A stretch of DNA of 49,087 nucleotides from an uncultured Rhodospirillales bacterium (lineage in GTDB: Bacteria; Pseudomonadota; Alphaproteobacteria; CACIAM-22H2), in assembly GCA_903860935.1 (NCBI GenBank), contig CAIOSQ010000274.1, forward strand, positions 1 through 49,087, written 5' to 3'. The notes beneath the pieces were generated by a model that saw only the letters and a list, made by a program, of their open reading frames with translations, was not told the origin of the DNA and made no database searches. Within the stretch, counting starts at the first letter, position 1. Every line of letters begins with the position of its first letter. The position numbers and the translations under genes were made by a program. This document shows, piece by piece, positions 1 to 17,165 of the stretch.

Positions 1-468
1 AACGATTCGAACGCGATCATGCTGCGCCTCATCGCGGCGCGCGTCGCCCCGGAGGCGGCCAAGGCGCTGGGCGAGAAGATGCGCGCGATGCATTTCGCCG
101 TCGGCGAGAGCCGCGACGAGACGCGGCGCCTCGCGGGCGAGATCCGCGTGGTGGCGCGCCAGCTGGTCGAGGCCTTCGGTCGTCACGAATTCGGTCGCGC
201 CGACATGCAGGCGCTGCTCGCTGGCGTGATCGCCGACGGCGAGGCGCAGGAATTCATCGATTTCGCCTCCGCCGAGCAGGCGACGATGGCGATCTCGTCG
301 ATCGTCAACGCCATGAAGGCGGCTGGCCATGTGAGCGACGACGTCTTCGCCGCCATGAATGCCGCGCTGCAGAAGCTGAACGCAGCGGTCGAGAAGGACG
401 AGGCCTATCGCGCCCCGGCCTATCGTCTCGCCCTGAAGGATTTCGAGAAGACCGCCCCCAAGCCATGA
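1..468 (+). CDS. C-terminal part of a multiheme cytochrome c (c554-like), 5'-truncated by the window edge; paralog of 1397..2707
   Basis: Frame is open from base 1 (NDSNAIMLRLIAAR...). It aligns without gaps to the C-terminal 154 aa of 1397..2707 (94/154 identical by manual count). The heme motifs would lie upstream of the window. Confidence 0.85.
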   Translation, partial: NDSNAIMLRLIAARVAPEAAKALGEKMRAMHFAVGESRDETRRLAGEIRVVARQLVEAFGRHEFGRADMQALLAGVIADGEAQEFIDFASAEQATMAISSIVNAMKAAGHVSDDVFAAMNAALQKLNAAVEKDEAYRAPAYRLALKDFEKTAPKP

Positions 469-481
469 GCACGGGCTCGTT

Positions 482-1378
482 ATGAGCATGAGCATGGGCT
501 CTGGCGCGGTGTCCGGTGGCGTGTCGCTGGTGGTCTGCGATCCGCACGTTCATATCTGGGATCTCACGACGAGGCTCTACCCGGCCCGCGAACGCCGCCG
601 CGATGCAGGCGAACCCGGGATCGGCGACTATCACATCGCCGATCTGCGCGCCGATTGCGGTCCGGTGGTGGTCGCGTCTGCCGTCCATGTCGAGGCGTTC
701 CCGACCGATGGCCTCGCCGAGGCGAGGCATGTGACGGCGCTCGCCGAGGCGGCCGGACATGGCCTCCCGCAGGGCATCGTCGCGAATGCGGATCTTGCAT
801 CTGCCGATGCCGACGCCGCGCTGGCGGCGCTGTCGGCGCTGCCTCGGGTTCGCGGTATTCGTCAGGCGCTGAACCGCGCCGACGAGACGCGCGACCTGCT
901 ATGCGATCCGCGGTGGCGAGACGGGTTCACGCTTCTGGCCCGACACGGGCTGTCCTTCGATCTGCAGATCGCGCCGGAGCGGATGCGCGAGGCCGCGGCG
1001 CTGCTTACCCGGCATCCGGAGATCCCCGTCGCGCTCAACCATGCCGGCTGGCCCAAGGCGCGGGGCCTTGCCGCGTGGCGGGTCTGGCGCGAGGGACTGC
1101 GCGCGCTGGCGGCGCTGCCGCATGTCCATGTGAAGATCAGCGGCTTCGGCATGTTCGAGCGCGACTGGACGCTGGAGAGCATCCGTCCCTATGTGTTCGA
1201 GGCGATCGATGCGTTCGGGACCGACCGGGCGATGTTCGCGTCCAATTTCCCGGTCGACCGGCTGGCCCGGGACTATCCGTCGCTCTGGCGGGCCTTCGCC
1301 GCGCTCGTCGAGGATCTCGACGAGGCGTCGCGGGGCCGGCTTCTGCGCGCGAATGCCGAGGCGTTCTACCGCCTGTGA
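482..1378 (+). CDS. Amidohydrolase-superfamily TIM-barrel hydrolase (lactonase / amidohydro_2-like)
   Basis: N-terminal DPHVH metal motif, LNHAG, VKISG, and FASNFPVD with the catalytic Asp. Confidence 0.85.
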   Translation: MSMSMGSGAVSGGVSLVVCDPHVHIWDLTTRLYPARERRRDAGEPGIGDYHIADLRADCGPVVVASAVHVEAFPTDGLAEARHVTALAEAAGHGLPQGIVANADLASADADAALAALSALPRVRGIRQALNRADETRDLLCDPRWRDGFTLLARHGLSFDLQIAPERMREAAALLTRHPEIPVALNHAGWPKARGLAAWRVWREGLRALAALPHVHVKISGFGMFERDWTLESIRPYVFEAIDAFGTDRAMFASNFPVDRLARDYPSLWRAFAALVEDLDEASRGRLLRANAEAFYRL

Positions 1379-1396: not shown

Positions 1397-2707
1397 TCAG
1401 CGCGGGATGGTCTGCTCGAAATCGCGCAGCGCGGCGCGGTAGGTGCCCGGCCGGAACGCCTCGTCCTTCGCGACGGCCGCGAACATGCGCTGCAGCGCGT
1501 CGTTCATCCGCTTGTAGCCGTCCTCGGGAACATGGCCACCCGCGCGCATCGCGCTGAGGATCGAGCCGATCGCCATCGTGGCCTGCTCGGCGACCGCATA
1601 ATCGAAGAAATCGCCGCCATTGCCGCTCGCCGCGATCCCCGCGAGGAGCGCGCGCATGTCCTCGGCCCCGAAATCGCGCTTGCCGAAGACGCCGACCAGC
1701 TGGCGCGACAGGGTCCGGATCTCGCCGGCGAGGCGCCGGGTTTCCTCGCGGTTTTGGGTCACCGCGCGATGCAGGCCGCGCATCTTCTCGCCCAGGCTGC
1801 GTGCGAGTTCGGGCGCGGCGCGCGCGGCGGCGATCCGTAGCATGATCGCGTTGGCGTCGTTGAGCTTGATCATCCCCGGACCGAGGCCGGTCGACGGCCG
1901 CGGGTTCCATTTGAGGTCGCTCATCGGGTGGTGGCAGGCGTGGCAGTCGAAGAAGACGAGTTCAGGGAACAGGCCGCTCGTCCCGACTTCGGGATCGAGC
2001 ATCAGGTCCATCGTCTTCGCGAGGGCCATCGCCTGGCCGATCGCCCAGACCTGGACGCTGTTCTGTCTGCCCTTGCGCTCGACATAGTCCTTGTCGATGG
2101 CGAAATGCGCCGGCTGCGTGGCGGTGAAGGTGTCCAACTCGAAGCCGATGCGGGGATGTCCCGCGCCCATCAGCCGGTGCGAGACGAATTTGCGGTCGTT
2201 GCCGTAATGGCAGGAGAGGCAGAGTTCGGCGCGCGCGACCGGATCGTCGGTCGGATACATGCCGGCCTTGACGTTGTCGGCATGGCTGGCGCCGGAGATG
2301 TGGATGCCGAGCCAGGTGCTGCCGCCGCCATGACAGGCCTCGCAGCCGACGCCGTCGGTGAGCTGGAACTGGCGACCGCGCTGGGCCGCGGCGACATTGT
2401 CGGCGTGGCAGTCGAGGCACACCTTCGCGGTATGCGCATCGGGTAGTCCCAGATTGCGGGCGATGCGTTTCGACAGATCGTTGAGCAGGACCTTGTAGGC
2501 CTTCGCGTGCGGGTCCTGGCGCAGCCAGGTCGTGTATTCGTTCTGCAGCACGTTCGAGGTCTTGAACGGCTCCTGCGCGCCGTGGCAGGTGCTGCCGGCG
2601 CAGGAGGTCACGCCAAGATGCGTCGCCTTCGCATAATGCGGAAGTTCGACGGCGTTCGCGAGAGCCGGCAGGAGTACCGCCAGAACCAGGACCATCCAGC
2701 CGCGCAT
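1397..2707 (-). CDS. Exported multiheme cytochrome c (c554-like N-terminal domain, about 5 hemes) with helical C-terminal domain
   Basis: Signal peptide MRGWMVLVLAVLLPALANA. Four CxxCH motifs (CLDCH, CEACH, CLSCH, CHACH) plus atypical CAGSTCH (CX4CH). GGGAGG RBS upstream. Confidence 0.9.
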   Translation of the reverse strand: MRGWMVLVLAVLLPALANAVELPHYAKATHLGVTSCAGSTCHGAQEPFKTSNVLQNEYTTWLRQDPHAKAYKVLLNDLSKRIARNLGLPDAHTAKVCLDCHADNVAAAQRGRQFQLTDGVGCEACHGGGSTWLGIHISGASHADNVKAGMYPTDDPVARAELCLSCHYGNDRKFVSHRLMGAGHPRIGFELDTFTATQPAHFAIDKDYVERKGRQNSVQVWAIGQAMALAKTMDLMLDPEVGTSGLFPELVFFDCHACHHPMSDLKWNPRPSTGLGPGMIKLNDANAIMLRIAAARAAPELARSLGEKMRGLHRAVTQNREETRRLAGEIRTLSRQLVGVFGKRDFGAEDMRALLAGIAASGNGGDFFDYAVAEQATMAIGSILSAMRAGGHVPEDGYKRMNDALQRMFAAVAKDEAFRPGTYRAALRDFEQTIPR

Positions 2708-2799: not shown

Positions 2800-3540
2800 A
2801 TGACTGGTCTTCGCCGCCGGGGAGCCGCCGACATCGACACGGGTTCCATTCCGATCGCCGGGTCCCTCGCGGCTGCCGCGACGATCGCGGGGACAGCGCT
2901 CGGCGCGCTTGCGACGACATGGATGACCGACATGGTGCTGCGGCGTGTCGCCTGGGCCGACGATCTGCCGCCCCTCGCGTGGCGCATCGAGCGGTCCTTC
3001 TTCGCCGCGCGTGTCTGCGGTGCGGCCCTGATCGGCCTGGTCTGCGCATCATCGCTCCCGCCGCTCGAGGCGGCCGCGACGAGCGTCTTCGGCTGGGCGA
3101 TGCTGGCCCTCGCCTGGATCGATCTGCGCAAGGGCGTGTTGCCTGACGTGGCGACCGGGGTGACCGCCGTCGCCGGGCTTGGCTGGGCGCTGGCATCCGG
3201 CGATTTCGTCGCCGCGGTCGCGATGGCTCTCGCGGGCGGATTGCTCGGGTTTGGAATCCTGGCGGCGGTCGCGGCGCTCTATCGGTGCGCGCGCGGTGTC
3301 GACGGCCTTGGTGGCGGCGATGCGCGTCTTCTCGGTGCGATTGGGATCTGGGTCGGGTGGCAGGGCATCGCGCCGGTGCTGCTTGGCGCGGCGTTGCTCG
3401 GTCTCGCCCTGGCCGGCGCGCTGCGACTCGCGGGGCGTGGTCCGGGGGGCGGCGATGCGGTGCCGTTCGGCCCGTTCCTTTGCATCTGCGCCTGGCTGGT
3501 TCTGATCTGGCGGATGGCGTCGGGCGAGGGGGTGGGATGA
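2800..3540 (+). CDS. gspO: Prepilin peptidase (A24 family, GspO/PilD-like); start uncertain
   Basis: Multi-TM protein with two aspartate motifs (WIDLRKGVLPD, GLGGGDARLLGAIG) and C-terminal VPFGPFL. Stop overlaps the gspE start (ATGA). Confidence 0.85.
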   Translation: MTGLRRRGAADIDTGSIPIAGSLAAAATIAGTALGALATTWMTDMVLRRVAWADDLPPLAWRIERSFFAARVCGAALIGLVCASSLPPLEAAATSVFGWAMLALAWIDLRKGVLPDVATGVTAVAGLGWALASGDFVAAVAMALAGGLLGFGILAAVAALYRCARGVDGLGGGDARLLGAIGIWVGWQGIAPVLLGAALLGLALAGALRLAGRGPGGGDAVPFGPFLCICAWLVLIWRMASGEGVG

Positions 3541-5252
3541 GCATCTCCGACCGAGATCCGCCATCGGGTGCGGCGACGGCAGAGGATCTGCTCGAATTCC
3601 TGGTCGCGCGCGGCGTCGTCGCGGAGGGCGCGCCCACGCGGGTCCGCGCGCTGCGCTCCAGCCGCGAGGAGAGCGACGCGGCGATGCTCGTCGCGCTGGG
3701 GCTCGCGGACGAGCGTGCCCTCGCCGCGGCCCTCGCCGAGTTCCTGCGGCTTCCGCTTGTCGGCGCGGAGGATTTTCCGTCCCGTCCCGTGCAGGTCGCC
3801 CGGATCGCACCCGAGTTCCTGCGCCGGGCGCGCATTCTGCCGCTCGCCGAGAGCGCCGATGCGCTCGACCTGGCGATGGCGGATCCGACGGATGCCTATG
3901 CGCTGCGGGCCGTGCGGCTGGCGACCGGGCGTCCGGTGCGTGCATGCGTTGCCGTCCCCAGCGAGATCATGGCGGCGCTCGATCGCCTCGAGAGGCCGGG
4001 CGGTGCCGCGACCGCGGCGACGGCCGAGGCTGCACCCGCGCGCGCCGACGATCTCCGCCGGCTCGGCGACCTCGCGAGCGACGAACCGGTCATCCGGTTC
4101 GTCAATACGCTGGTCGCGCGCGCCGTCGCCGCCCGCGCCTCGGACATCCATGTCGAGGCGGCCGAGGCCCAGGTGACCCTGCGTCTGCGGATCGACGGGC
4201 TGCTGCGGCCGATCGAGCCGCCGCCTGCGGCGCTGGCCCCGAACATCGTGAACCGCATCAAGATCCTGTCGGGCCTCGACGTGGCGCAGCGACGGCTGCC
4301 ACAGGATGGCCGCTTTCGCGTCACGGCGGAGGGACGCGAGATCGACATCCGGATCTCCACCGTTCCCACACTGCATGGCGAAAGCGTCGTGCTGCGCCTG
4401 CTCGACCGGCAGCGCGCGCCGCTCGACCTCGCCGAACTCGGCTTCGGGCAAGGCTTGCGCGACGGGCTCGAGGGGTTGCTTGGCCTCGCCAGTGGAATGG
4501 TCCTGGTGACCGGCCCGACCGGCAGCGGCAAGACCTCGACGCTCTACGCCTTGCTGCAGCGGCTCAACGCGCCGGAGCGCAAGATCCTGACGGTCGAGGA
4601 CCCGGTCGAATACCAGCTGCCCGGCGTGAACCAGATCGCCGTCAACGCCGCGATCGGGCTCGATTTCGCCCATGTCCTGCGCTCGCTTCTGCGCCAGGAT
4701 CCGGACGTGCTGCTGGTGGGCGAGATCCGCGACGCGGAGACCGCGCGCGTGGCGGCCCAGGCCAGCCTCACCGGCCATCTGATGCTGTCGACGGTGCATA
4801 CCAACGATGCTGTCGGCACGATCGCGCGGCTGCTCGATATCGGGCTCGAGGGGCTGCTCGTCACCTCGGTGCTGCGCGCGGTTCTGGCGCAGCGTCTGGT
4901 GCGCCGGCTCTGCACCGCCTGTCGCGCGCCTGTCTTCGTCGGCCGCGCCGCGCTGGCGCGCGCGGGCATGGCGGCGCTGCTGCCGCCAGATGCGGATGGC
5001 GCGACGCTGCATCGCGCCGTCGGCTGTCCCGCCTGTGGCGGCACGGGCTATCGCGGCCGCGTCGCGATCGGCGAATTGCTGACGATGTCGGACGAACTCG
5101 GCCAGGAGATCCTGCGTGGCGCGGATCTCGCCGCGCTGCGGCGCTGCGCGCAAAATGCCGGCATGGTCGAGATGCGTCTGGACGGGATGCGCAAGGCCCT
5201 CGACGGTGCGACGACCCTCGAGGAAATCCTGCGCGTCACCGGAGGCGCGTGA
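3537..5252 (+). CDS. gspE: Type II secretion ATPase GspE
   Basis: ASDIHVE, RRLPQDGR, Walker A GPTGSGKT, TVEDPVE, LRQDPDVLLVGEIRD, tetracysteine CTAC...CPAC. ATG at 3537 overlaps the gspO stop. Confidence 0.95.
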   Translation: MSISDRDPPSGAATAEDLLEFLVARGVVAEGAPTRVRALRSSREESDAAMLVALGLADERALAAALAEFLRLPLVGAEDFPSRPVQVARIAPEFLRRARILPLAESADALDLAMADPTDAYALRAVRLATGRPVRACVAVPSEIMAALDRLERPGGAATAATAEAAPARADDLRRLGDLASDEPVIRFVNTLVARAVAARASDIHVEAAEAQVTLRLRIDGLLRPIEPPPAALAPNIVNRIKILSGLDVAQRRLPQDGRFRVTAEGREIDIRISTVPTLHGESVVLRLLDRQRAPLDLAELGFGQGLRDGLEGLLGLASGMVLVTGPTGSGKTSTLYALLQRLNAPERKILTVEDPVEYQLPGVNQIAVNAAIGLDFAHVLRSLLRQDPDVLLVGEIRDAETARVAAQASLTGHLMLSTVHTNDAVGTIARLLDIGLEGLLVTSVLRAVLAQRLVRRLCTACRAPVFVGRAALARAGMAALLPPDADGATLHRAVGCPACGGTGYRGRVAIGELLTMSDELGQEILRGADLAALRRCAQNAGMVEMRLDGMRKALDGATTLEEILRVTGGA

Positions 5253-6463
5253 TGGGCGGTTTTCGTTATCGCGCAGTCGATCCCTCGGGTGCCGCGATCA
5301 CCGGCGAGATCGAGGCCGCGGACGAGGCGGCGGCCATCGCGGCGCTGCAGGCGCGCGGGGTGTTCCCGACCGACATCGTGCCCGCCGCGGCGGACCCCAT
5401 GCCCGCGACCGCGGCGGCGCGGGCAGGAACCGCCCTGCGCGCGCGGGATCTGGCGCTGTTCACTCGCCAGCTCGCCAGCCTGACCGGTGCCGGCATCCGG
5501 CTCGAGCGTGCGCTGAGCCTTCTTGCCGCCGGCCGCGGTCCCGCGCGGGCGCGGCGGGTCGCCGGTGAACTCCATCGTCAGTTGCTCGGCGGCAGCCAGT
5601 TCTCCGCGGCCTGCGCCAGCCACCGCGCCTTTCCGCCCCATTTCGCCCTGGTGGTGGCGGCCGGCGAGGCGCGAGCGGACACCGCCGGTGCTCTCGATTA
5701 CCTCGCCGCCCTGCAGGAGCGCTGGCGCCAGACGGCCCAGGCGCTGGTCGCCGCGCTGGCCTATCCGGCGGCGGTTCTGGTCGTGGGCGTGGCCACGCTC
5801 GCCTTCCTCCTGGTGTTTTTCGTCCAGCGCTTCGAGCCGTTGCTGCGCGATCTCGGCCGCGCCTTGCCGCTGCAGACCCGGATCCTCCTTGGCGCGTCGG
5901 ACGCCGCGGCATGGGCCGCGCCGGTGTTCGTGCTCGCGCTCGCGGCGATGGTCGCGCTTGCCGCCGCGAGCCGTCGCGACCCGCGGCTCGCCCTGGCGCG
6001 CGACCGGTTCCTGTTGCGGTTGCCGCTGGTCGGCTCCCTGCTGCGCCAGATCCTGGCGGAGCGGATCATGGTCATGCTCGGACATCTGCTCGCGGCCCGC
6101 GTCGAGTTCCGGCTCGCCCTCGCGGCCACGGCGGCCGCGATCGGCAACCGCGTCGCCGCGGCGGCGCTCGAGGATGCGCGCGCCGCCCTCGAACGCGGCG
6201 AGGGGCCGGGCGCGGCGCTCGCCAACGGCGGCATCCTGCCGGAATTCGCGCTCGAGTTGATCCGGATCGGCGAGGAGACGGGCGACCTGCCGGGGATGCT
6301 GCGGCGCGGCGCCGATCTCGCGCGCCGCGAGGCCGAGGCCACGACCGCCCTGGTGCTGGGCCTCGTCACACCGGTCAGCATCCTTGCCCTGGGCCTCGCG
6401 ATCGGCGCCATCATCTGGGGGGTTTTCGGATCCGTGCTGGAGGTCTACGACATCGCGTCATGA
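5252..6463 (+). CDS. gspF: Type II secretion inner-membrane platform protein GspF
   Basis: MGGFRYRAVD start, LALFTRQLASL, ALAYP-TM, IRIGEETGDL, C-terminal TM. Coupled to gspE (TGATG). Confidence 0.92.
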   Translation: MGGFRYRAVDPSGAAITGEIEAADEAAAIAALQARGVFPTDIVPAAADPMPATAAARAGTALRARDLALFTRQLASLTGAGIRLERALSLLAAGRGPARARRVAGELHRQLLGGSQFSAACASHRAFPPHFALVVAAGEARADTAGALDYLAALQERWRQTAQALVAALAYPAAVLVVGVATLAFLLVFFVQRFEPLLRDLGRALPLQTRILLGASDAAAWAAPVFVLALAAMVALAAASRRDPRLALARDRFLLRLPLVGSLLRQILAERIMVMLGHLLAARVEFRLALAATAAAIGNRVAAAALEDARAALERGEGPGAALANGGILPEFALELIRIGEETGDLPGMLRRGADLARREAEATTALVLGLVTPVSILALGLAIGAIIWGVFGSVLEVYDIAS

Positions 6464-6918
6464 ACCGCCCGTCCGCATCCTTTCCGCCGCGCCGCGCCGC
6501 GGGCGCGTCCCAGGCCGGATTCACCCTGGTCGAACTGCTGGTTGTGCTCGCGATCATGGCGATGCTGGCCGGCCTCGTGGCGCCGCGCGTGATGGAGTAT
6601 TTCGGGCGCGCGAAGGTCGATACCGCGAAGCTGCAGGTCGAGAACATCGCGGCGGCGATGGAACTGCACCGCCTCGATGTCGGTCGCTATCCGTCGGCGC
6701 AGGAGGGCCTCCAGGCGCTCGTCGCCCCGAGCGGCGCGGCGCGTTGGCAGGGACCCTATCTCAAGGGCGGCGCGGTGCCGCTGGATCCCTGGGGGCGGCC
6801 CTATCGCTACCGGATCCCGGGCACCGAGGGGCGTGCCTTCGACGTCTACTCGGCCGGTCCGTCGGCGGAGGGCGGGGAGGGCGCCCCGGCGCGAGGCGCC
6901 ATCGTCAACCGTCCGTGA
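6460..6918 (+). CDS. gspG: Major pseudopilin GspG
   Basis: Class III signal QAG|FTLVE, then LDVGRYPS..EGLQALV, WQGPYLK and DPWGRPYRY. Confidence 0.95.
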   Translation: MNRPSASFPPRRAAGASQAGFTLVELLVVLAIMAMLAGLVAPRVMEYFGRAKVDTAKLQVENIAAAMELHRLDVGRYPSAQEGLQALVAPSGAARWQGPYLKGGAVPLDPWGRPYRYRIPGTEGRAFDVYSAGPSAEGGEGAPARGAIVNRP

Positions 6919-7343
6919 GTGGCGGCGCGCGCGCGCGACGGCGCGGGTTCTCCCTGATCGAGATGCTCGTCGTGCTCGCCCTGCTCGGCGTCGCGGCCAT
7001 GCTGGCGCTGCCGCGTTTCGGATCTTCGGCGACCGCCGGCGATCTCGCCGCGATCACGCGCCAGGTCCACGACGCCTTGCGCGAGGCCCGCAGCGTCGCC
7101 CTCGCCCAGGGGCGCGACGTCGCCGTCGCCATCGATCCCGGTGGTCGTGCGCTGTGGATCGACGGGAAGCGGCGGGTGCTCGGTGGCCGCGCCGCCGCCG
7201 ACATCCTGGCCTCCGCCGGATCGCCGATCATGTTCCATGCCGTCGGCGGTTCGTCCGGCGGGCGCATCCTGCTGCGCGCCGCGGACAGGCGCAGGGAGAT
7301 CCTGGTTGAACCGGTCACCGGCCGCATCCGCGACGCGGGTTGA
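6915..7343 (+). CDS. gspH: Minor pseudopilin GspH
   Basis: RRG|FSLIEMLVVL, ARSVALAQG, FHAVGGSSGG, VEPVTGRI. GTG start overlaps the gspG stop. Confidence 0.85.
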   Translation: MSGGARARRRGFSLIEMLVVLALLGVAAMLALPRFGSSATAGDLAAITRQVHDALREARSVALAQGRDVAVAIDPGGRALWIDGKRRVLGGRAAADILASAGSPIMFHAVGGSSGGRILLRAADRRREILVEPVTGRIRDAG

Positions 7344-7740
7344 CCCCCGCCGGGGGCGGTGCCGCGCCGGGTTCTCGCTGATCGAGATCCTGGTCGCGCT
7401 CGCGATCGCGGGCGCCGTGCTCGGCACGGTCGCCGGTACGCTGCGGCGCGGTGGCGAGGCCGCGCTGCGCGCCGGACGGATCGAGGAGGCGCTGCTCGTC
7501 GCCCAGGGGCGGCTCGCCGCCGCGGGAACCGAGGAGCCGCTGTCTCCCGGGCGGAGCCAGGGGCTCGCCGCGGAGCGCTATCCCTGGGAGATGACGATCG
7601 AATCCGTCGATCTGCCGCTGCCCGTCGCCGGGCCTGCCGCGAAGGTTTTCCGCATCGCGATCGTGGTCACATGGCGCGAGGGCCGCGCCGAGCGTCGTCT
7701 GGACCTTGCCACCCATCGCCTCGCCTTGGGGGCACGATGA
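7306..7740 (+). CDS. gspI: Minor pseudopilin GspI (start uncertain; TTG at 7306 assumed)
   Basis: RAG|FSLIEILVALAI prepilin motif; size and position between gspH and gspJ. Confidence 0.8.
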   Translation: MNRSPAASATRVDPRRGRCRAGFSLIEILVALAIAGAVLGTVAGTLRRGGEAALRAGRIEEALLVAQGRLAAAGTEEPLSPGRSQGLAAERYPWEMTIESVDLPLPVAGPAAKVFRIAIVVTWREGRAERRLDLATHRLALGAR

Positions 7741-8348
7741 CCGGGACGCGGCGCCGGTGTCGCGCGGTAGCGCGCGGCTTCACCCTGGTCGAACTCCTCG
7801 TGGCCATGGCGCTCGCCGGGCTCGTCCTGCTCGCGCTGTTCGGCGGGATGGCGATCGCCGTACGCGGTGTCGCGCAGCTCGCGTCCGGAAGCGAACGGGT
7901 CGACGAGCGGCGCCAGCTCGCGCTCTGGCTGCGGCGCGAGATCGAGGTCGCGCTGCCGCCGGATCGCGGTGGTCTGGCGCGGCTGCCCTTCGTGGGCGAG
8001 GCCGCGGCGCTGCGTTTCCTGACCATCGACGCCGCAGGCGCGACGGAGGTCTCGCTCGCGCTGGAGGCCGCGCTCGACGGCACGTCCGGTCGGCTGGTGC
8101 TGGTGCGGCGCCCTCTTGATGGTGGCCTGCCGGCGCGCGTCGTGCTGGCGCGGGACTTGGCGTCCTTGCGGTTCTCCTACTGGGGACGGCACGCCGAGGC
8201 GGAGGGTGCGCGCTGGGCCGACAGCTGGAGCGATCCGCGCGAGGTCCCGGTGCTGGTGCGGGTCGCGATCACGCGGTCCGGCGCTGAGGAGGCGCTGCCG
8301 ATCGTCGTGCGCCTGCGCGCCGCCGATTCCCGGGCGTCGGCGCCATGA
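7737..8348 (+). CDS. gspJ: Minor pseudopilin GspJ
   Basis: ARG|FTLVELLVAM and C-terminal LRFSYW...W..SW..P.LVRV pattern; ATGA overlap. Confidence 0.85.
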   Translation: MTGTRRRCRAVARGFTLVELLVAMALAGLVLLALFGGMAIAVRGVAQLASGSERVDERRQLALWLRREIEVALPPDRGGLARLPFVGEAAALRFLTIDAAGATEVSLALEAALDGTSGRLVLVRRPLDGGLPARVVLARDLASLRFSYWGRHAEAEGARWADSWSDPREVPVLVRVAITRSGAEEALPIVVRLRAADSRASAP

Positions 8349-9244
8349 CCGGATCCGCGCATCCCCGGGCGGACCGCCAGCGCGGCGCCGTGCTGATCGT
8401 CGTGCTGTGGTGTGCGGGCCTCGTGGCGGCGTTGCTGCTCGCGGCCCTGGGTACGGGCCGGACCGACGCGCTGGTCGCGCGCAACGCGGTGGACCAGGCG
8501 CGCGCGCAACTCGCCGCCGAGGGCGCGGCGCAGCTGGCCCTCGCGCGGCTGCTGATCCGGCGCGCGGAGGGCCGCCCGAGCGCCAGCGGCGATCCGGAGC
8601 CCTGGTCCGATGGCGACATCGCGGGCCGCGTCGCGGTGATCGACGAGAACGGCCGCATCGACATCAACGAGGCGTCGTTCGAGATGCTCGCCGGCCTCGT
8701 CCAGGCCGTGGGGCGCGGCGAGGCGGAGGCCTCCGCCCTGGCCTGCGCGATCCTCGGGTTTCGGGGCGCGATCGATTCGCGCTGCGCCGCGGTTTCGTCC
8801 ATCCAGGCCGGGCAGGTCTTCGCCGCGACGGCGCAGTTGGCGGCGCTGCCCGGCGCGGATCCGGCGCTGGTCGCCGCCCTCGTGCCGCATGTCACGGTGC
8901 ATTCGGGCGCGTTCGGGATCGATCCCGCCGCCGCGACGCGCGAGGCGCTGCTGGCCGTGCCGGGGCACAGCCCCGGGATCGTCGCGCAATTCCTCCTGCG
9001 CCGGGCCGCGCGCGCGCCGCTCGGCGAGGGCGGCTCGGTCTACGATGTGCTGCCGCCCTCGCGCTATCTGACGGCAAGCCCCGGCGTGGTCTTCGTCATC
9101 CATGCCGAGGCGGTCGTGCCCGGCGGCGCGGTCTATCGCGTCGAACACGTGGTTCGCCTCGGTGGGGGCGACGACCGGCCGTACCGGACCCTCGCCTGGC
9201 GCGCGCAGCCGCCGCCGCGGTTCGCGTCTCAGGCCGCCCGCTGA
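8345..9244 (+). CDS. gspK: Minor pseudopilin GspK
   Basis: QRG|AVLIVVLW (no Glu5, as is typical of GspK), DENGRIDIN, VTVHSG..GIDP. Confidence 0.88.
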   Translation: MTGSAHPRADRQRGAVLIVVLWCAGLVAALLLAALGTGRTDALVARNAVDQARAQLAAEGAAQLALARLLIRRAEGRPSASGDPEPWSDGDIAGRVAVIDENGRIDINEASFEMLAGLVQAVGRGEAEASALACAILGFRGAIDSRCAAVSSIQAGQVFAATAQLAALPGADPALVAALVPHVTVHSGAFGIDPAAATREALLAVPGHSPGIVAQFLLRRAARAPLGEGGSVYDVLPPSRYLTASPGVVFVIHAEAVVPGGAVYRVEHVVRLGGGDDRPYRTLAWRAQPPPRFASQAAR

Positions 9245-9309
9245 TGCGTGCGGCGCGGCACCTCTGATAGGATCGCATCCGTGAGGCGTCAGGCGGTGCG
9301 GCTTCGGCC

Positions 9310-10431
9310 ATGATCGACATGCAGCAAGCGCGACCTTCGGGGACGGAGCGCGGCCGGGCCGCCCCGGCCCCCTTGCGCGCGATCCGGTGGTGGCTCGGCG
9401 AACTCGATGGCGCGTGGCGCGATGCGCGCGCACTCCTGGTCCGCGCGCCGCATGGCGCCGACGGGCTTGTGCTCGAGGCCAGCGCCGAGAGCTTCACGAT
9501 CCATCGCCAGTCGGGCGCGCGGCGATCCACGCTGGGACGCGTGGCGCGTCCGGTCGCCAGCCGCGCGGCGCTTGATCCCGGCCTGCGCGCCACGCTTGCC
9601 GCCGCGCGCGGTCGCGCGATCGTCGAACTCGCGGCCGCGGACACGCTGACGCGGCGCCTGCGTCTGCCGGATGCAGGACCGGCCGATCTCGCGCGCATGC
9701 TGCGTTTCGAATTGGCGAAGCACCTGCCTTTCCCGATCGAGGAGGCGTGCTGGTATTTCCGTGCCGTCGGCCCCGCGCCGGGCCGCGGCGCCGCGCGCGA
9801 GGTCGAGGTGAGCGTGGCGCCGCTCGCCCTCGCGGTGGCGATACGCGACGAACTGGCCGCGCTCGGCATCGCCGCCGACGGTTTCGTCGCCGCCGACCTG
9901 CCCGCCGATGCCCGGTCCGGCCTGTCCTTCCTGCCGCCGACGGCGGGAGCGGCGTCCGGTGGTGGATCGGTGGCGCGGATGGTGGCACTGGTCCTCGTGA
10001 TCGCCGCCGGCGGCGCGAGCCTCGCCTCGCCGCTGCTCGCCGATCGCGCGCGGATGCAGACCCTCGGTGACGAGATCGCGCGGCTCGAACCGGCGGCGAA
10101 GCGTGGCCTTGCCGTGCGCGAGCAGGCGCTGCGCGACGGCGAACGCGGCGAGGCCCTGCGCCGGATGCGCCAGGCGCGCCCTGATGCGATCGCGACGCTG
10201 GCGCTGCTCACCGCGGCGATCGACGATGCGTCCTGGCTCGTCTCCCTTGCCCTGTCGGGGCCGGAGGTCGTGATCGACGGCCGGTCGCCATCCGCGGCTG
10301 CCGTCGCGGCGGCGCTGGAGCGCACCGGGCGTTTCGAGCGCGTCTCGTTCCGCGCGCCGATCGCGCGCGATCCGGCCACGGGGCTCGAGCGTTTCCAGAT
10401 CGCAGCCATCCTGGCCGAGGCGCGGCCGTGA
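9310..10431 (+). CDS. gspL: GspL / PilN-domain T2SS assembly protein
   Basis: WWLGEL, LRLP......LARMLRFELAKHLPF, one TM, C-terminal PilN-like DASWL..L.L....V.IDG; follows gspK. Confidence 0.75.
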   Translation: MIDMQQARPSGTERGRAAPAPLRAIRWWLGELDGAWRDARALLVRAPHGADGLVLEASAESFTIHRQSGARRSTLGRVARPVASRAALDPGLRATLAAARGRAIVELAAADTLTRRLRLPDAGPADLARMLRFELAKHLPFPIEEACWYFRAVGPAPGRGAAREVEVSVAPLALAVAIRDELAALGIAADGFVAADLPADARSGLSFLPPTAGAASGGGSVARMVALVLVIAAGGASLASPLLADRARMQTLGDEIARLEPAAKRGLAVREQALRDGERGEALRRMRQARPDAIATLALLTAAIDDASWLVSLALSGPEVVIDGRSPSAAAVAAALERTGRFERVSFRAPIARDPATGLERFQIAAILAEARP

Positions 10432-10967
10432 TCCGCGCGGGGAGCATGGTCGCGCGCGTCGCTGCGCTTGGGCTGCTCGCGGGCTTCGCGGCGGCGCTCT
10501 GGGCCGGTCCGGTCGCGATCTATCGCGAGGCGCTTGACGCGTCGCACACCCGCGTCGCCCAGGCATCGGCGCTGGCGGCGCGCTATCGTCTCCTGGCCGC
10601 GGGGCCGCCCGATGGCGCGGTGCCGCGCGCGGCGTCCGGCCTTCTGCTTGCCGACCTGCCGGCCGCGCAGTCCTTCGCGGCGCTCAGCGAGACCATCAAG
10701 CAGGCCGCGGATGCGGCCGGTCTTGCGGTGCAGGGGCTGCAAGGCCTGGGCGAGGAGAGCGTCCTCGGCCTGCAGCGCAGCGGGGTGCGCGTGCGCGGCA
10801 CGGCCACGCTCGCCGGGCTGGCGCGGTTCCTGGCGACGGTGGAGGGCGGCATGCCGCTCCTGATCGTCGACGGGTTGCGCGTCCAGTCGCGCCAGGGGAC
10901 CGGCGCCACACAGGAGGAGCGACTGGAGATCCAGATGGACATCGTCGGCTTCCGGGAGCCGACATGA
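10428..10967 (+). CDS. gspM: GspM-like T2SS protein
   Basis: N-terminal TM, coiled region, L.RFL..VEGGMPLLIVDGL pattern; follows gspL with GTGA overlap. Confidence 0.75.
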   Translation: MIRAGSMVARVAALGLLAGFAAALWAGPVAIYREALDASHTRVAQASALAARYRLLAAGPPDGAVPRAASGLLLADLPAAQSFAALSETIKQAADAAGLAVQGLQGLGEESVLGLQRSGVRVRGTATLAGLARFLATVEGGMPLLIVDGLRVQSRQGTGATQEERLEIQMDIVGFREPT

Positions 10968-11401
10968 ACGGCGCGGCATCCACCGGCGCTCTTTTCGTCA
11001 TCGCGGCCCTGCTCGTCGGGGCGGCGGCGTGGCCATGGCTGGCGACCGAAACTCCGGTCGCGATCGCCGCGGCGCCTGGCGCCGCCGCGCCGGTCGCGCT
11101 GCCCGCCGTCGATCCGCAGGCTCTCGCGACCGTGCTGGAGCGCCCGCTGTTTTCCGCCGGTCGCCGTCCGGCTGCGGCCGAGGGGGGGGCGCCCGCCGCC
11201 GCGCCGCGGTCCGCGCTGCGTGTCGAGGGCGTGGTCGACGCGGGCGGCAGGCGCCGGGCCATTCTCCGGCGCGAAGGGAGCGCCGCCAGCCTGCACCTTG
11301 CCGAGGGCGACACGGTCGATGGATGGGTCGTGCGCGCGATCTCGCCGGACAGGGTCGTGCTCGTCTCGCCGGCCGGAGAACTCGTCCTGCCGGCGCGCTG
11401 A
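10964..11401 (+). CDS. XpsN/GspC-like T2SS accessory protein
   Basis: N-terminal TM, ERPLFSAGRRP, LRVEGVV, L.EGDTVDGWVVRAISPDRVVL. This gene normally precedes the secretin in Xanthomonas/Caulobacter-type clusters. Confidence 0.7.
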   Translation: MNGAASTGALFVIAALLVGAAAWPWLATETPVAIAAAPGAAAPVALPAVDPQALATVLERPLFSAGRRPAAAEGGAPAAAPRSALRVEGVVDAGGRRRAILRREGSAASLHLAEGDTVDGWVVRAISPDRVVLVSPAGELVLPAR

Positions 11402-11409
11402 CGGCGCTG

Positions 11410-13407
11410 TCACTCCGCCGCGTGGGCGGGCGACGCGCCCGGCGCGTCGTCGCGGCGCGGCCGACGCACGGGCAGCGCGACGCGCCAGCGGCGGTCGGCG
11501 AGGCCGGTCAGTCCGCCGATCGCCATCAGGCCGGCACCGATCCAGATCCAGGGGACCAGCGGCTTCCAATAGGCGCGTACAACCCAGCTTCCGGACGGAT
11601 CCGGATCGCCCAGCGCGACATAGACGTCCGACAGAAGGTTGGTGCGGATCGCGGTGTGGCTGGTGACGCGGCGCTGCACCGTGAACAGGCGCCGCTCCGG
11701 ATGAAGCGTCGCGATCGTCGTTCCGTCGCGCGACAGCGTGATCGTGGCACGGTCCGCGAGGTAGTTCTCGCCGGTGCGCTTGTCGACGGCCTCGAGCTTC
11801 AGCGCGTAGCCACCGATCTCCACCGTGTCGCCCGGGCGCATGGCCTGGATCCGCTCGACCTCCCAGGCCGAGGCGGCGATGCCGAAGGTCGTGATCGCGA
11901 CACCCAGATGCGCGAGCGCCATGCCATGGGCCGCCAGCGGCCGGTGGCGGGCGCGGCGCAGGCTCTCGGCCAGCGGCGCGCGGAAGAGATGGATGCGGTC
12001 CGCCCATTCGACCAGCACGCCGACGGCGAGCCAGCAGGCGAGGCCAAGCCCGCCGATGGCGAGAAGAGGACCACCGCCGGTGGCGTAGAGGGCGACGCCC
12101 ATCAGGACGATCGCTGCCGCGAAGGCGAGCCACAGGCGTTGCAGGGCCCCCAGCGCATCGCCGCGCTTCCAGCCGAGGAACGGACCGACCGCAAGCGCAA
12201 GCAGCAGCGGAACCATCAGCGGCGAGAACGTGGCGTTGAAGAAGGGCGGTCCGACCGAGATCTTGCCGCCGCCCATCACGTCGACGATCAGCGGGTAGAT
12301 GGTGCCGATGAAGACGGTCGCCGTGGCGGTCGAGAGCAGGAGGTTGTTGAGGACAATGGCGCCCTCGCGCGAGACCGGCGCGAAGATCCCGCCGCCGCGC
12401 AGCGACGGCGCGCGCAGAGCGTAGAGCGTGAACGAGCCGCCGATCGCGGCCCCGAGCAGCAGCAGGATGAAGCTTCCGCGCGCGGGATCGACGGCGAAGG
12501 CATGGACCGAGGTGAGGACGCCGGAGCGGACCAGGAACGTACCCACCAGGGACAGGCTGAAGGCGACGAGGGCCAGCAGGACCGTCCAGGTCTTCAGCGC
12601 CTCGCGCTTCTCCACCACGATCACGGAATGCATCAGCGCCGTGCCGACCAACCAGGGCATGAAGCTGGCGTTCTCGACCGGATCCCAGAACCACCAGCCG
12701 CCCCAGCCCAACGTGTAGTAGGCCCACCAACTGCCGGTGGCGATGCCGATGGTCAGCGGGATCCAGGCGGCAAGCGACCAGGCGCGGACCCAGCGCGCCC
12801 AGAGCGCGTCGACACGCCCTTCGAGCAGCGCGGCGACCGCGAAGGCGAAGGTGATCGAGTAGCCGACATAGCCGAGATAGAGGAAGGGCGGATGGAAGGC
12901 GAGGCCCGGATCCTGCAGGATCGGGTTGAGGCCGCGCCCGTCCGCGGGCACGGGGAAGACGCGCAGGAACGGGTTCGACGTGGCGAGGATGAAGATCCCG
13001 AAGCCGGTGGCCACCATGCCCTGGATCGCGAGCACCCGCGCGCGCAACGTCTGCGGCAGTTCCGCGCCGAACACCGCGACGGCCCCGCCGAACAGCGCGA
13101 GGATGAGGATCCAGAGCAGCATCGAGCCCTCATGGTTCCCCCAGACGCCGGTGATCTTGTAGAGCATCGGCTTCGTGCTGTGGCTGTTCTCGGCGACGTT
13201 CGCGAGCGAGAAATCCGAGGTCGCGTAGGCGTGGACGAGGGCGAGGAAGCTGAAGGCGACGAACCCCGCCTGGAGCAGGGCGGAGGGTTGTCCCACCGCC
13301 ATCAGGTTGGGGTCGCCGCGCTGCGCCCCCCAGAGCGGGACCACCGCCTGGACCAAGGCGAGCATGGTCGCGAGGATAAGCGCGAAATGTCCGAGTTCGG
13401 CGAGCAT
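11410..13407 (-). CDS. ccmF: Cytochrome c heme lyase CcmF/NrfE family
   Basis: MLAELGHFAL, WGNHEGS, LNPILQD...HPP, WWD motif WGGWWFWDPVENAS, RSGVLTSVHAFA. Confidence 0.97.
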   Translation of the reverse strand: MLAELGHFALILATMLALVQAVVPLWGAQRGDPNLMAVGQPSALLQAGFVAFSFLALVHAYATSDFSLANVAENSHSTKPMLYKITGVWGNHEGSMLLWILILALFGGAVAVFGAELPQTLRARVLAIQGMVATGFGIFILATSNPFLRVFPVPADGRGLNPILQDPGLAFHPPFLYLGYVGYSITFAFAVAALLEGRVDALWARWVRAWSLAAWIPLTIGIATGSWWAYYTLGWGGWWFWDPVENASFMPWLVGTALMHSVIVVEKREALKTWTVLLALVAFSLSLVGTFLVRSGVLTSVHAFAVDPARGSFILLLLGAAIGGSFTLYALRAPSLRGGGIFAPVSREGAIVLNNLLLSTATATVFIGTIYPLIVDVMGGGKISVGPPFFNATFSPLMVPLLLALAVGPFLGWKRGDALGALQRLWLAFAAAIVLMGVALYATGGGPLLAIGGLGLACWLAVGVLVEWADRIHLFRAPLAESLRRARHRPLAAHGMALAHLGVAITTFGIAASAWEVERIQAMRPGDTVEIGGYALKLEAVDKRTGENYLADRATITLSRDGTTIATLHPERRLFTVQRRVTSHTAIRTNLLSDVYVALGDPDPSGSWVVRAYWKPLVPWIWIGAGLMAIGGLTGLADRRWRVALPVRRPRRDDAPGASPAHAAE

Positions 13408-13418
13408 GCCTTATCGTA

Positions 13419-16400
13419 TCAGCGTCGCGTTGCAGCCGGCACGAAATCACCCGGCCGACCCGTGGGGGAGACCGCGTAGGGCTTGCCGTCGCGGTCGATA
13501 TAAAGGCGGCGCTGTTCCTCCAGGGTGAAGGGGCGGGATCCGATGCGCCCGAACACCGCCACCTGACCGCCGCTCTCGTCGACGCCGCGGTCGCGTTCCA
13601 GCCCCCGCGACAGCGACAGCGCGGGCGTGCGCGTCTTGCGCCAAGCCACCAACTCGGGCTTGGGCTCGGGCGAGAAGCCGTAGAAATTCGGCTGGCTGTC
13701 CGGCGAGGTCAGTTGCACGACCTTGAGCCCGTTGGCGCCATCCGCCACATAGGCGAAGGCCGAGGCGTTGGTCGCGCCGATCACCACGTCGCGCGCGTCG
13801 TTGAGGCGCCCGCCATCGGTGAAGCGCTGGTGGACGCGCGGATGCTCGGGGCGCTCGACGTCGACGATCACGAGGCCCTCGCGGCCAGCCGCCACGTAGG
13901 CATAGGTGCGGGCGACCATCATGCGGTGCGCGTCGGCCATCGGGAGATGCGCCGAGGGCACCGGGCGCGGCGTCGCCGGCGCGGTGACGTCGATCACGTG
14001 CATGCCCTTCGTGTCGAGCGCGAAGAGGTAGCGGAACTGGATGGCGGTCGACCGCAGATCCGCGAAGGGCAGCGTCGCGAGGACCTTCGGCTCCAGCGGC
14101 TTGTCCATGTCGAGGACGACCAGCCCGGCGCGTGCCGCGATATAGAAATACCGGCCGGCGATGGTCAGGTGACGGGCCCCGTCGAGGATGCCGCCCGCGT
14201 TCCAGGTCAAGGCGCGGCGCAGGAAGTTGTTGCGCGGCTCCCCGTCGGCCAGCGTGTTGACGTCGGTCAGGATCAGGCCTTCCACGGAATCCGTGATGAA
14301 GGCGTAGTCGTAGATCGGGTGGAAGGGCTGCTCCTGGTTGAGCTCCTGCATCTTCGGATCGGCGCCGCGCGCCGGATGGATCGGCTGCGTCGTCGGTAGC
14401 ACGACGCAGGTCGCGTCGCGCGAGGCGATATGCGTGTCGTGACCGAGCGCCGCGAAGGGCGCGGAGATGATCCGTTGCGATACGCCCTTGTTGGCGATGC
14501 TGGCGACGTCGTAGACGCGCATGCCGCTCGACCCTTCGGCGACGAAGAGATATTCGCCGCGCAGCTGCAGGCATCCGACCTGCGCCGCGGTGCCGCGCGT
14601 ATCGGTCTCGGCCAGGGCGCGGCCGCGCGCGAGATGCTCGCCGTACCATTTCGGATAGGCATAGCGGTGCAGGTAGCTGCCGATGACCGCCTGCGGCTCG
14701 TCCCATTCGGTGACGCGCACGGCCTCGAAGCTGCGCTCGCCGCCGACCCAGGCGTTGAGCCCGACCATGTTGACGTAGTTGGTCCCGTGCAGGAGCAGCT
14801 GCGCCATGATCGCGTTGTTGTCGTTGGCTTCGGAGATGTGGCAGTCGGCGCAGCCCTTGGTTTCCGTCAGACGCTCGGTATGCGGATAATGCGGCGCGAA
14901 GGCCTGGCTCGAATAGCCGGCCGCGGAGATCGGTGGCTGTTGCGCGTAGATCCGCTCGCGGTTGATGTTGGTCGAGGACAGGACCAGGGCCGAAGTCGAG
15001 CGGATCGGCGCGATGATGTTGCCCTTGATCGTGCCGTGCCGGCCGAGTTGGAACATGTCGTCGCGCGCGACCTGCGGATTGTAGGTGGCGTAGTTGCGCG
15101 TCTCGCCGCCCTCGTAGTGATGGCGCTCGGTCTTGAAATTCGCCTCGATCGGAAGATGGCAGCCGCCGCAGCTCGTCGTCCAGGAGAGGTGGCAGGTGTA
15201 GCAGGCCAGTTCTTCGTCCTTGTGGGCGAGATCCGCCGCCGGGATGCCGGGACCCCATTTCATGGAGCCGTCGTTGCTCATCAGCTTGGCGCGCGCGGAT
15301 TTCGCGTTGTACTTGGCGTTCGCCGGATCGACGCTGTCCTTGACCAGCGACACCTCCCATTCGAGGTCCGGATACAGCGACGACCGCTGGAAGAGCTTGC
15401 CGTCGATCCACTCGAAGCGGGGGCGGCCGAAGCTCGTGCGCATGAGCGACAGGTCGGTGCCGCCGGGCCGCGCCGCGGGACCGGAGGTCCGCAGGCTCGG
15501 ATAGGCTTTCGACGTGCCATGGCAATCGGCGCAGCCGATCTCGATCGCCGCGGCGACCTCGCCATAGATGTGGCCGTTGCCGTGGCTGTCCTGGGCGAAA
15601 TGGCAGTCGACGCAGTGCATGCCGGCATCGACATGGATCGACGACATGTGGACCGCCTTCTTGAACTTCTCGGGGTCCTCCGGCGGGATCACGTTGTCGG
15701 CGGCGTCGAGCAGGTTGCCCTTGCGGTCGCGCTTGTAGATGGCGCGGAAATTCCAGCCATGGCCGTGGTAATCGGCGAACTGCGTGTCCTTCAAGTCGGG
15801 ATTGAGGGCGCTGACCTCGCGCAGGAAGGCCGGATCCGCCCAATTGCCGCGGACTGACGCGCCCTCGGGGTTGCGCCGCAGGGTCTTGGCGATTTCTTCG
15901 TCGGTCGGGAATTTCTGCTCGGCCGGAAACATCTTCGGGGCGTCCGGCTCGTAGTCGTACATGGTGTAGCCGAGCATGCTGTTGAGGAAGATGTTCGGCT
16001 GGTGCATGTGGCAGATCATGCACTGGCTGGTCGGGATCGCTTTCGTGAACTCGTGCTTGAGCGGGTGGCCGGAGCGGTCATGCGGGATCGTCGGGTCGAC
16101 CGTCTTTGACGTGCCGCGATTGCCGAAGCGGGCGTAGGGGCCCGAATGCTTCACGTCGCGGTCGTTGGCGTAGACGACGTGGCACGACGCGCAGCCCGAG
16201 CTGCGATAGTCGCCCGGCTGGTCGTTGGTGCCGAGGAACCACATGAACGGGTCGTTCAGGCGCGTCTTGGTGATGTTGAGTACGGGGATCGCAACACGCA
16301 GACCGGTCGCGGGGCCGCGATTCGATTGCTTGAGATCGGGGCGTCCCGGCTCCTCCAGGCGCTGGATCTGGCCGGTCACGTTGGGCAGGCCGATTTCCGG

Positions 16401-17165
16401 GAACTGGGTCAGGATGTTGCGCCCGCCGCGCTCGAAGACGCGGAACACGTCGGCCGGCGGCGTCACTTCCCAGGCCGGGAGCGGATAGAGTTCTGGCAGC
16501 AATCCGCGGCTGCGGGTCAGTTCGGGGCTGGGCTTAACCGGGGCCACCAGCTTCGCGGGCTGTCCGTCGCGCGTGTAGCCCTCGCCAAGGAGGTAGTTTT
16601 TGAACGGCAGGATTCCGTTGTTGTAGGACGCGCCGCCCCAGAGCATGGCGCCGGTCGCCATCAGGCTGCGCTCGGCGGCCTGGATGACCGTGAGATGGCA
16701 CGCGCCGCAGGCCTCGCGCGCGACGCGGTAGTCGCTGGGGTTCACGAAGCGGATGTAGTCGGGCGATTCCTTGTTCAGCAGCGTGTAGCTGCGGATGGGG
16801 TTGGCGCTGCCCGAGGCGGTCCAGAATTCGGGCAGGCGCGGCTGGACATGCGCCTTCGCCATCGCGGCGCCATAGGCGGGGCCGTCCTTGCTGCTTCCGG
16901 CGGGACGCATGACGCCCGCGTCACCCCCATGACAATCCGCGCAGCCGAGGACGACGGCGGGATTGCTGTGCATGTTCGCGGAATCGGATTTCTCGTGGCA
17001 GGTGAGGCATCCGGCGCTCTTTTCCGCCGCGCGGTCGGGATGCTGCCGATCGGGAGCCGGCGGGAAGAGCGGTGCCGAGGCGACGCGCGGGCCAGGGCCA
17101 TCGGCCGCCCAGCTCGACGGAACCGCGAAGACGATCAGGAGGAGCGCGAGGAGGAGAAGGCGCAT
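13419..17165 (-). CDS. Large exported decaheme cytochrome c with C-terminal LVIVD-repeat (beta-propeller-like) domain, 1248 aa
   Basis: Sec signal (MRLLLLALLLIVFAVPSSWA). Ten CxxCH (CLTCH, CADCH, CGACH, CASCH, CMICH, CVDCH, CADCH, CYTCH, CGGCH, CADCH). Repeats GMRVYDV, GLILTDV, GLVVLDM, GMHVIDV, GLVIVDV, GLKVVQL. Confidence 0.9.
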   Translation of the reverse strand: MRLLLLALLLIVFAVPSSWAADGPGPRVASAPLFPPAPDRQHPDRAAEKSAGCLTCHEKSDSANMHSNPAVVLGCADCHGGDAGVMRPAGSSKDGPAYGAAMAKAHVQPRLPEFWTASGSANPIRSYTLLNKESPDYIRFVNPSDYRVAREACGACHLTVIQAAERSLMATGAMLWGGASYNNGILPFKNYLLGEGYTRDGQPAKLVAPVKPSPELTRSRGLLPELYPLPAWEVTPPADVFRVFERGGRNILTQFPEIGLPNVTGQIQRLEEPGRPDLKQSNRGPATGLRVAIPVLNITKTRLNDPFMWFLGTNDQPGDYRSSGCASCHVVYANDRDVKHSGPYARFGNRGTSKTVDPTIPHDRSGHPLKHEFTKAIPTSQCMICHMHQPNIFLNSMLGYTMYDYEPDAPKMFPAEQKFPTDEEIAKTLRRNPEGASVRGNWADPAFLREVSALNPDLKDTQFADYHGHGWNFRAIYKRDRKGNLLDAADNVIPPEDPEKFKKAVHMSSIHVDAGMHCVDCHFAQDSHGNGHIYGEVAAAIEIGCADCHGTSKAYPSLRTSGPAARPGGTDLSLMRTSFGRPRFEWIDGKLFQRSSLYPDLEWEVSLVKDSVDPANAKYNAKSARAKLMSNDGSMKWGPGIPAADLAHKDEELACYTCHLSWTTSCGGCHLPIEANFKTERHHYEGGETRNYATYNPQVARDDMFQLGRHGTIKGNIIAPIRSTSALVLSSTNINRERIYAQQPPISAAGYSSQAFAPHYPHTERLTETKGCADCHISEANDNNAIMAQLLLHGTNYVNMVGLNAWVGGERSFEAVRVTEWDEPQAVIGSYLHRYAYPKWYGEHLARGRALAETDTRGTAAQVGCLQLRGEYLFVAEGSSGMRVYDVASIANKGVSQRIISAPFAALGHDTHIASRDATCVVLPTTQPIHPARGADPKMQELNQEQPFHPIYDYAFITDSVEGLILTDVNTLADGEPRNNFLRRALTWNAGGILDGARHLTIAGRYFYIAARAGLVVLDMDKPLEPKVLATLPFADLRSTAIQFRYLFALDTKGMHVIDVTAPATPRPVPSAHLPMADAHRMMVARTYAYVAAGREGLVIVDVERPEHPRVHQRFTDGGRLNDARDVVIGATNASAFAYVADGANGLKVVQLTSPDSQPNFYGFSPEPKPELVAWRKTRTPALSLSRGLERDRGVDESGGQVAVFGRIGSRPFTLEEQRRLYIDRDGKPYAVSPTGRPGDFVPAATRR

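Follow-up and report, generated by a model that had tools for sequence, protein, structure and literature searches.

A type II secretion system of a lineage seen only beside a multiheme cytochrome cluster, and likely export of proteins of that cluster

The contig studied here, a 49,087-nucleotide stretch of DNA from an uncultured Rhodospirillales bacterium of the Alphaproteobacteria (GenBank assembly GCA_903860935.1, contig CAIOSQ010000274.1; hereafter the window, which is contig C274 of genome G000), encodes a type II secretion system (T2SS) among genes for heme proteins. This T2SS belongs to a lineage that we see only beside an unstudied multiheme cluster, and export of proteins of that cluster to the cell surface is likely. 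The operon of the cluster, recognized by its LVIVD-repeat decaheme cytochrome, is present in at least 595 genome stretches, and the key question about it is whether any protein it encodes goes beyond the periplasm. A T2SS clade not seen without the operon makes this question one of a single-gene knockout and names candidate cargo. A T2SS without a secretin, as the first-pass annotation described it, is an oddity to be dropped; the real feature is the displacement of gspD.

The first-pass annotation, made from the window only, had described the cluster as lacking a secretin and had suggested looking for one just to the left. A 728-residue GspD is encoded there, on contig C31 of the same genome, with N0, Secretin_N and secretin domains and a TIGR02517 score of 453.8 bits (cut-off 351.35). 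It was the single match in a PF00263 profile search of the contigs of G000 and is the genome's only secretin. The last 141 bases of C31 are identical to the window's first 141, a sequence with no other occurrence. Because such 141-mers are common to 260 of 936 contig ends of G000, the gap between C31 and the window is an assembly break. Once the contigs are joined, gspD lies 3.8 kb left of gspO, and the open reading frame of cytA, a cytochrome gene that crosses the join, stays in frame. In a second genome, G003, one contig carries, in order, ccmI-gspD-cytA-amidohydrolase-cytB-gspO..N-ccmF-LVIVD. A 6310-base contig from run X3, whose study differs from that of the best holder X1, has one end within gspD and the other within gspE. 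What looked like a missing secretin is an artefact of assembly. The secretion cluster is complete, in keeping with the earlier suggestion that a secretin was encoded elsewhere. A secretin-free periplasmic pseudopilus, the other reading then offered, could point to the absence of gspD after gspN inside the window, but it is refuted by the full upstream GspD, contiguous with the system in G003 and falling in a clade that matches that of GspE, and we leave it next to no probability.

Within 2800-11401 there are 11 plus-strand genes, gspO-E-F-G-H-I-J-K-L-M-N(C-like), whose identity, order and strand as first annotated are borne out by Pfam and NCBIfam. Neighbouring genes mostly overlap by 1-14 bp, with a 65-bp gap only between gspK and gspL, and they are translationally coupled except at that gap. 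The end of gspN is exactly 8 bp from the convergent ccmF stop, and heme-protein genes lie on both sides of the cluster, both as previously noted. The genes of the system and the contig overlap are as follows.

Window 1..141: exact, unique 141-mer overlap with the 3' end of C31
C31:7583-9769 (window-equivalent -3173..-987), plus strand: gspD, with a lipobox-like LLSC motif
2800..3540, plus strand: gspO, prepilin peptidase (PF01478), both Asp motifs, without the N-terminal CxxC pair
3537..5252, plus strand: gspE, ATPase with an N-terminal MshEN-like domain (PF00437, E 9e-126)
5252..6463, plus strand: gspF, platform protein (PF00482, above cut-off)
6460..6918, plus strand: gspG, major pseudopilin (TIGR01710, above cut-off)
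6915-7343, plus strand: gspH, minor pseudopilin, best NCBIfam match an Xps model
7330-7740, plus strand: gspI, minor pseudopilin, best NCBIfam match an Xps model
7737-8348, plus strand: gspJ, minor pseudopilin
8345-9244, plus strand: gspK, minor pseudopilin, weak matches only
9310..10431, plus strand: gspL, assigned by a PilN-like C-terminal match, position and orthologs in related clusters
10428..10967, plus strand: gspM, subtype b (XpsM-type; PF10741/NF040576, above cut-off)
10964..11401, plus strand: short GspC-like gene at the XpsN position (PF11356, above cut-off)

Together these supply GspD, GspE, GspF/L/M/C, GspG-K and a prepilin peptidase. Walker A, Asp box, Walker B, His box and Cys4 motifs are intact in GspE, whose best NCBIfam match (TIGR02533, 564.5) falls under its cut-off of 630.25, and prepilin cleavage motifs are present in GspG-J. 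None of the 12 gsp genes has an internal stop. Between G000 and G003 the ratio of non-synonymous to synonymous substitution rates (dN/dS) is 0.06-0.42, the highest value being that of gspJ and gspN. Judged by sequence, the 12 genes are intact and under purifying selection. Decay, which the first-pass annotation had also considered, is refuted by the absence of stops, the intact motifs and dN/dS below 0.5 for all 12 genes; we regard it as very improbable. In its favour are the 0.42 of gspJ and gspN, the accessory genes of the clade that were not found in G000 (see below) and the absence of the N-terminal Cys cluster from GspO, but the Cys-less GspO is common to G003 and G018. The CxxC pair is present in most orthologs and missing in these two genomes and G000. 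The N-terminal domain of prepilin peptidases is linked with methylation, and GspO without the pair may cleave without methylating. The window's gspO is the only prepilin peptidase gene found in G000.

The link between the T2SS and the cytochrome operon was evaluated in a class sample of 400 genomes (>=90% complete), in which genomes without a detected LVIVD decaheme marker are called operon-negative. The marker was found in 23 genomes and a full GspD in 63. GspD is present in 19/23 marker-positive and 44/377 marker-negative genomes, a co-occurrence for which the P value is overstated, as kin in the sample are not independent. In the genus, three of nine genomes (G000, G001 and G003) carry marker and GspD together, and the other six have neither the marker nor an above-cut-off GspD. 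In the family the marker is present in 4 of 41 genomes, and near full-length, close GspD matches are restricted to G001, G003 and G018, all marker-positive. A phylum sample, with only 4 of 199 genomes marker-positive, holds too few for a comparison of gamma- and betaproteobacteria. The genome searches scored few candidates per genome, and some GspE copies may be missed.

Trees of the two proteins give matching clades. In a quick GspE tree of 58 rows, a 19-row clade (SH-aLRT 98) contains operon-positive genomes only and none of the 36 operon-negative rows. A GspD tree made with FastTree (68 rows) contains a corresponding clade of 20 rows (support 100), which includes the C31 secretin and none of the 43 operon-negative rows. 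At least one of the trees includes 40 of the 44 GspD-positive, operon-negative genomes (left out were G036, G079, G183 and G280). The clade is carried by 16/23 operon-positive genomes of the class sample, which fall in eight families, and the family of the window is a further one. Gene order gives a similar picture. The gsp genes share a contig with the LVIVD gene in 9/23 operon-positive genomes, and the cytochrome gene cytB lies head-to-head with gspO/E in 15/23, sometimes with a ccmI-like gene between; in six of these 15 the T2SS and the LVIVD gene are on different contigs. At control T2SS loci cytB was found in 0/40, though several of these loci end near gspE. The head-to-head arrangement of cytB with gspO/E persists through rearrangements. 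Thus, the co-occurrence that the first-pass annotation proposed to look for is present, and genomics, through co-occurrence, the GspE and GspD clades and the adjacency of cytB, shows this T2SS clade to be tied to the multiheme module. Upstream of cytB, an insertion-sequence transposase-like sequence was seen by eye between cytB and gspO at locus L024 (G301), and in relatives a small ccmI-like gene is often found there.

The neighbouring genes include a six-gene minus-strand operon to the right of ccmF.

C31:5832-7379, minus strand: ccmI-like TPR gene, divergent from gspD
C31:9911 (start) to window 1..468 (3' part), plus strand: cytA, c554-like paralog of cytB, four CXXCH and one CX4CH
482..1378, plus strand: Amidohydrolase_2 gene, lactonase-like
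1397..2707, minus strand: cytB, exported pentaheme cytochrome, CX4CH and four CXXCH, head-to-head with gspO
11410..13407, minus strand: ccmF/nrfE heme lyase paralog
13419..17165, minus strand: exported 1248-residue decaheme cytochrome with an LVIVD-repeat C-terminus, the operon marker
17168..19009, minus strand: outer-membrane beta-barrel with a predicted AlgE-like fold
19006..20841, minus strand: HbpS/GlcG-like heme-binding protein, non-canonical lipobox-like APSC and Gly-rich tether
20881..22557, minus strand: membrane-anchored decaheme cytochrome of the c3 family
22582..23466, minus strand: inner-membrane protein of PCC3/PCC4 type, SGXXG and two WX3HX13H
23463..25868, minus strand: FAD/NAD(P) oxidoreductase, two cNMP and 4Fe-4S domains fused, first gene of the operon

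The gene cytA directly follows gspD on the same strand, and a tree places the cytA/cytB duplication at the genus level. The amidohydrolase between the two, present only in G000 and G003, is probably a passenger. On either side of the module lies a second copy of ccmF or ccmI; the other copies of both are on contig C252. The flanking copies may load heme at the CX4CH motif, which is invariant in cytB. The flavo-cNMP-Fe-S fusion has 801 residues and a PF13247 match, and the inner-membrane protein has SGXXG at 139 and WX3HX13H at 98 and 268. In G000 the APSC motif of the HbpS-like protein is preceded by Arg-Arg; at most beta/gamma-titled loci this protein has a lipobox and a Gly-rich tether, and at many alphaproteobacterial loci a cleavable-type signal.

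We favour, with moderate confidence, the reading that this Xps-type T2SS serves the adjoining multiheme operon and would export at least one folded protein across the outer membrane. Electrons would pass from cytoplasmic NAD(P)H to the flavo-Fe-S protein, the di-histidine membrane protein and the anchored decaheme, in that order. The CcmF and CcmI paralogs would load heme in the periplasm, the GspG-K pseudopilus would drive folded cargo out via GspD, and the cargo, by comparison with MtrC/OmcA, would function on the cell surface or farther out. A more specific version is doubtful, though it merits mention: an undescribed alphaproteobacterial T2SS clade would serve solely to deliver the c554/EfeO-like pentaheme cytochrome and its partners to the cell exterior, and the widespread PCC4/ptd-like operon would be an outward electron chain with no porin sheath and a secreted metal-binding end cytochrome.

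Three accessory secreted proteins track the clade.

L006:14621-15802 (G018): exported protein of about 400 residues, C-terminal PPC domain, invariant HCC.G.G motif, beside the clade's gspD at 12 loci; orthologs at L012, L014, L018, L020, L022 and L024, and further at L130, L137, L140, L204 and L207
L006:12735-14618: exported protein of about 600 residues, MORN-like, TPR and Cys-rich parts, orthologs making 11 loci, adjoining the PPC gene
L013:7650-8126: small exported protein, no Pfam match, orthologs making 26 loci, between the c3 decaheme and HbpS-like genes

None of the three was found in G000, whose T2SS stays conserved, and the cargo should therefore be sought among cytA/cytB, the HbpS-like protein and the LVIVD decaheme unless its gene is unlinked. 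We rank cytB first because its gene stays with the gsp genes and both paralogs are neighbours of them; the pentaheme cytA/cytB are the most likely cargo, with a substantial minority share of the case for export, and the HbpS-like protein or the LVIVD decaheme are the next candidates. In its carrier lineages the PPC-domain protein is itself a candidate cargo. An atlas search with it gave PPC-family leads only (0.87-0.90), and it was also not found in five operon-positive genomes without the clade. The MORN/TPR protein is a possible secretin assembly factor. The small protein is present at loci of clade carriers and at other alphaproteobacteria-titled loci.

Structure predictions describe two of the module's proteins. 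The cytB model (predicted local distance difference test, pLDDT, 89) has a c554-like N-domain and an EfeO/imelysin-like helical C-domain. Foldseek found nothing for it at E<=0.001. With VIA-align, EfeM/EfeO/imelysin structures gave Z 13.6-14.3 (191-195 residues, root-mean-square deviation (rmsd) 3.1-3.4) and c554 gave Z 10.6 (159 residues, rmsd 3.8), values that count as borderline where helical bundles are compared. For the barrel, the model (pLDDT 88) shows about 18-19 long strands. As it matches AlgE (E 3e-17), the barrel is unlikely to be an MtrB-like cytochrome sheath.

Several observations weigh against export. Three near-complete genomes carry the marker and no GspD that we could find: G156 and G378, both 100% complete, have the full operon including cytB, but no GspE or GspD was found in them, and the matches they gave belong to other families of secretins and ATPases; G594 is the third. 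Neither GspE nor GspD was found in the fragmented G422 and G215, and the only T2SSs of the operon-positive G142, G324 and G401 lie outside the clade. Among 80 named loci, some of which repeat DNA already counted, only six have a gsp match within 10 kb, all alphaproteobacteria-titled. The barrel tree fits a single alphaproteobacterial origin of the link with later losses, and the operon-positive genomes are therefore not independent. The cytB proteins beside the T2SS do not form one clade in their tree, cytB has a plain cleavable-type signal with no lipid anchor, and 20 cytB/cytA upstream regions yielded no shared motif. In the barrel, conservation is higher in the short turns, which are probably periplasmic, than in the long loops (0.80 vs 0.63); this points to a partner in the periplasm and speaks against all of the module lying outside.

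Several of these points would also be expected if the linkage were that of passengers, that is, if a single event in an alphaproteobacterial ancestor had joined the T2SS to the operon and the two had since been gained or lost together, the system carrying unlinked or non-heme cargo and the cytochromes staying periplasmic. We judge this unlikely, though by no means negligible. The single-origin pattern of the barrel tree agrees with it, as do genomes of family f133 with the operon and no T2SS found and beta/gamma-titled loci without linkage. The system has the genome's only GspE and GspD, so it could be general-purpose, and the PPC-domain exoprotein candidate adjoins the clade's gspD, but that protein has no full-length match in G000, G003 or G001.

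The machine might instead assemble or extrude a cytochrome polymer or surface appendage rather than single proteins, which we consider quite improbable. In Geobacter, a pseudopilus assists nanowire export. A dedicated machine with dedicated heme-lyase paralogs would suit such a role, as would the role of a T2SS in Geobacter metal reduction cited in the accessible part of PMC1974784, but the pseudopilins are ordinary GspG-K and the matches listed for the cytB model, c554 and EfeO/imelysin, include no filament cytochrome.

Scans for regulatory signals were largely negative. Between 1300 and 13500 we found no sigma-70 sites and one terminator-like site (3.2 expected). Six regulator patterns had no match upstream of cytB/cytA, and a loose Fur/Irr-type pattern matched in G288 only. 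Six RNA runs hold 0.06-0.15 of the sequence words; in run X15 a large part of cytB, but little of the rest, is covered by short contigs, and this is not proof of transcription. Ten studies contributed the DNA runs that hold 0.75-0.94 of the words; six of the runs are labelled lake water metagenome, and the best holder may be the sample from which the DNA came.

We compared the system with known ones, drawing on the accessible parts of the papers cited. In the Xps T2SS of Xanthomonas, xpsE-N is followed by xpsD (PMC2585010). The order E-F-G-H-I-J-K-L-M-N with a C-like gene at the N position is the same here, and further likenesses are the extra N-terminal domain of GspE, the XpsM-type GspM and the Xps models that are best for GspH and GspI. 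In contrast, gspO comes first in the operon here, gspD is found displaced to the upstream side, as it is in G001, G003 and G018, and the neighbours are multiheme redox genes. Here ccmF, not gspD, comes directly after the C-like gspN; the N-D order is kept in the clade relatives G119, G252 and G301.

The operon itself resembles PCC4 (PMC5566968) and ptdABCDEFG (bioRxiv 10.1101/2023.11.21.568154) in its flavin oxidoreductase, cNMP/Fe-S domains, di-histidine inner-membrane protein, decaheme, 4-5-heme cytochrome and barrel. The inner-membrane protein has the SGXXG and both WX3HX13H motifs, and the FAD oxidoreductase and cNMP/Fe-S domains lie upstream of it, fused in one protein. Unlike those clusters, the operon adds an HbpS-like protein and the 1248-residue LVIVD decaheme, and no pentaheme/beta-sandwich PtdA was seen. 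Heme counts are 10, 10 and 4+1 here vs 4, 5 and 10 in the description of ptd. PCC4 was described without an extracellular cytochrome (PMC5566968), and in the ptd preprint the function of the sister cluster is described as completely unknown (bioRxiv 10.1101/2023.11.21.568154). The only mention of type II secretion in the accessible text of the PCC4 paper is in a reference, and the text of the ptd preprint has none, though the preprint's supplements could list neighbouring genes. A literature search found no description linking the operon to a T2SS. A Tenderiales preprint concerns another cluster in the part available.

The atypical Geobacter T2SS of Mehta 2006 reportedly has a multicopper protein as cargo; it is said to be likewise a specialized T2SS tied to extracellular redox proteins. 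In Shewanella, export of the multiheme cytochromes MtrC/OmcA by a T2SS is an established precedent (PMC1974784, PMC12175506). Here, too, a T2SS is proposed to carry folded multiheme c-type cytochromes over the outer membrane. However, no MtrC-like lipoprotein was recognized by profile, with only a sub-threshold PF22113 match (E 0.011), and the modelled barrel, with its 18-19 or so long strands, is AlgE-like rather than the large MtrB-type barrel that sheathes a decaheme in MtrCAB. The MtrB barrel has 26 strands. The Shewanella analogy drawn in the first-pass annotation is thus loose: the AlgE-like barrel and the operon genomes in which no T2SS was found depart from it, and what stands is the tie between T2SS and cytochromes, which here is genetic and involves a T2SS of a separate clade.

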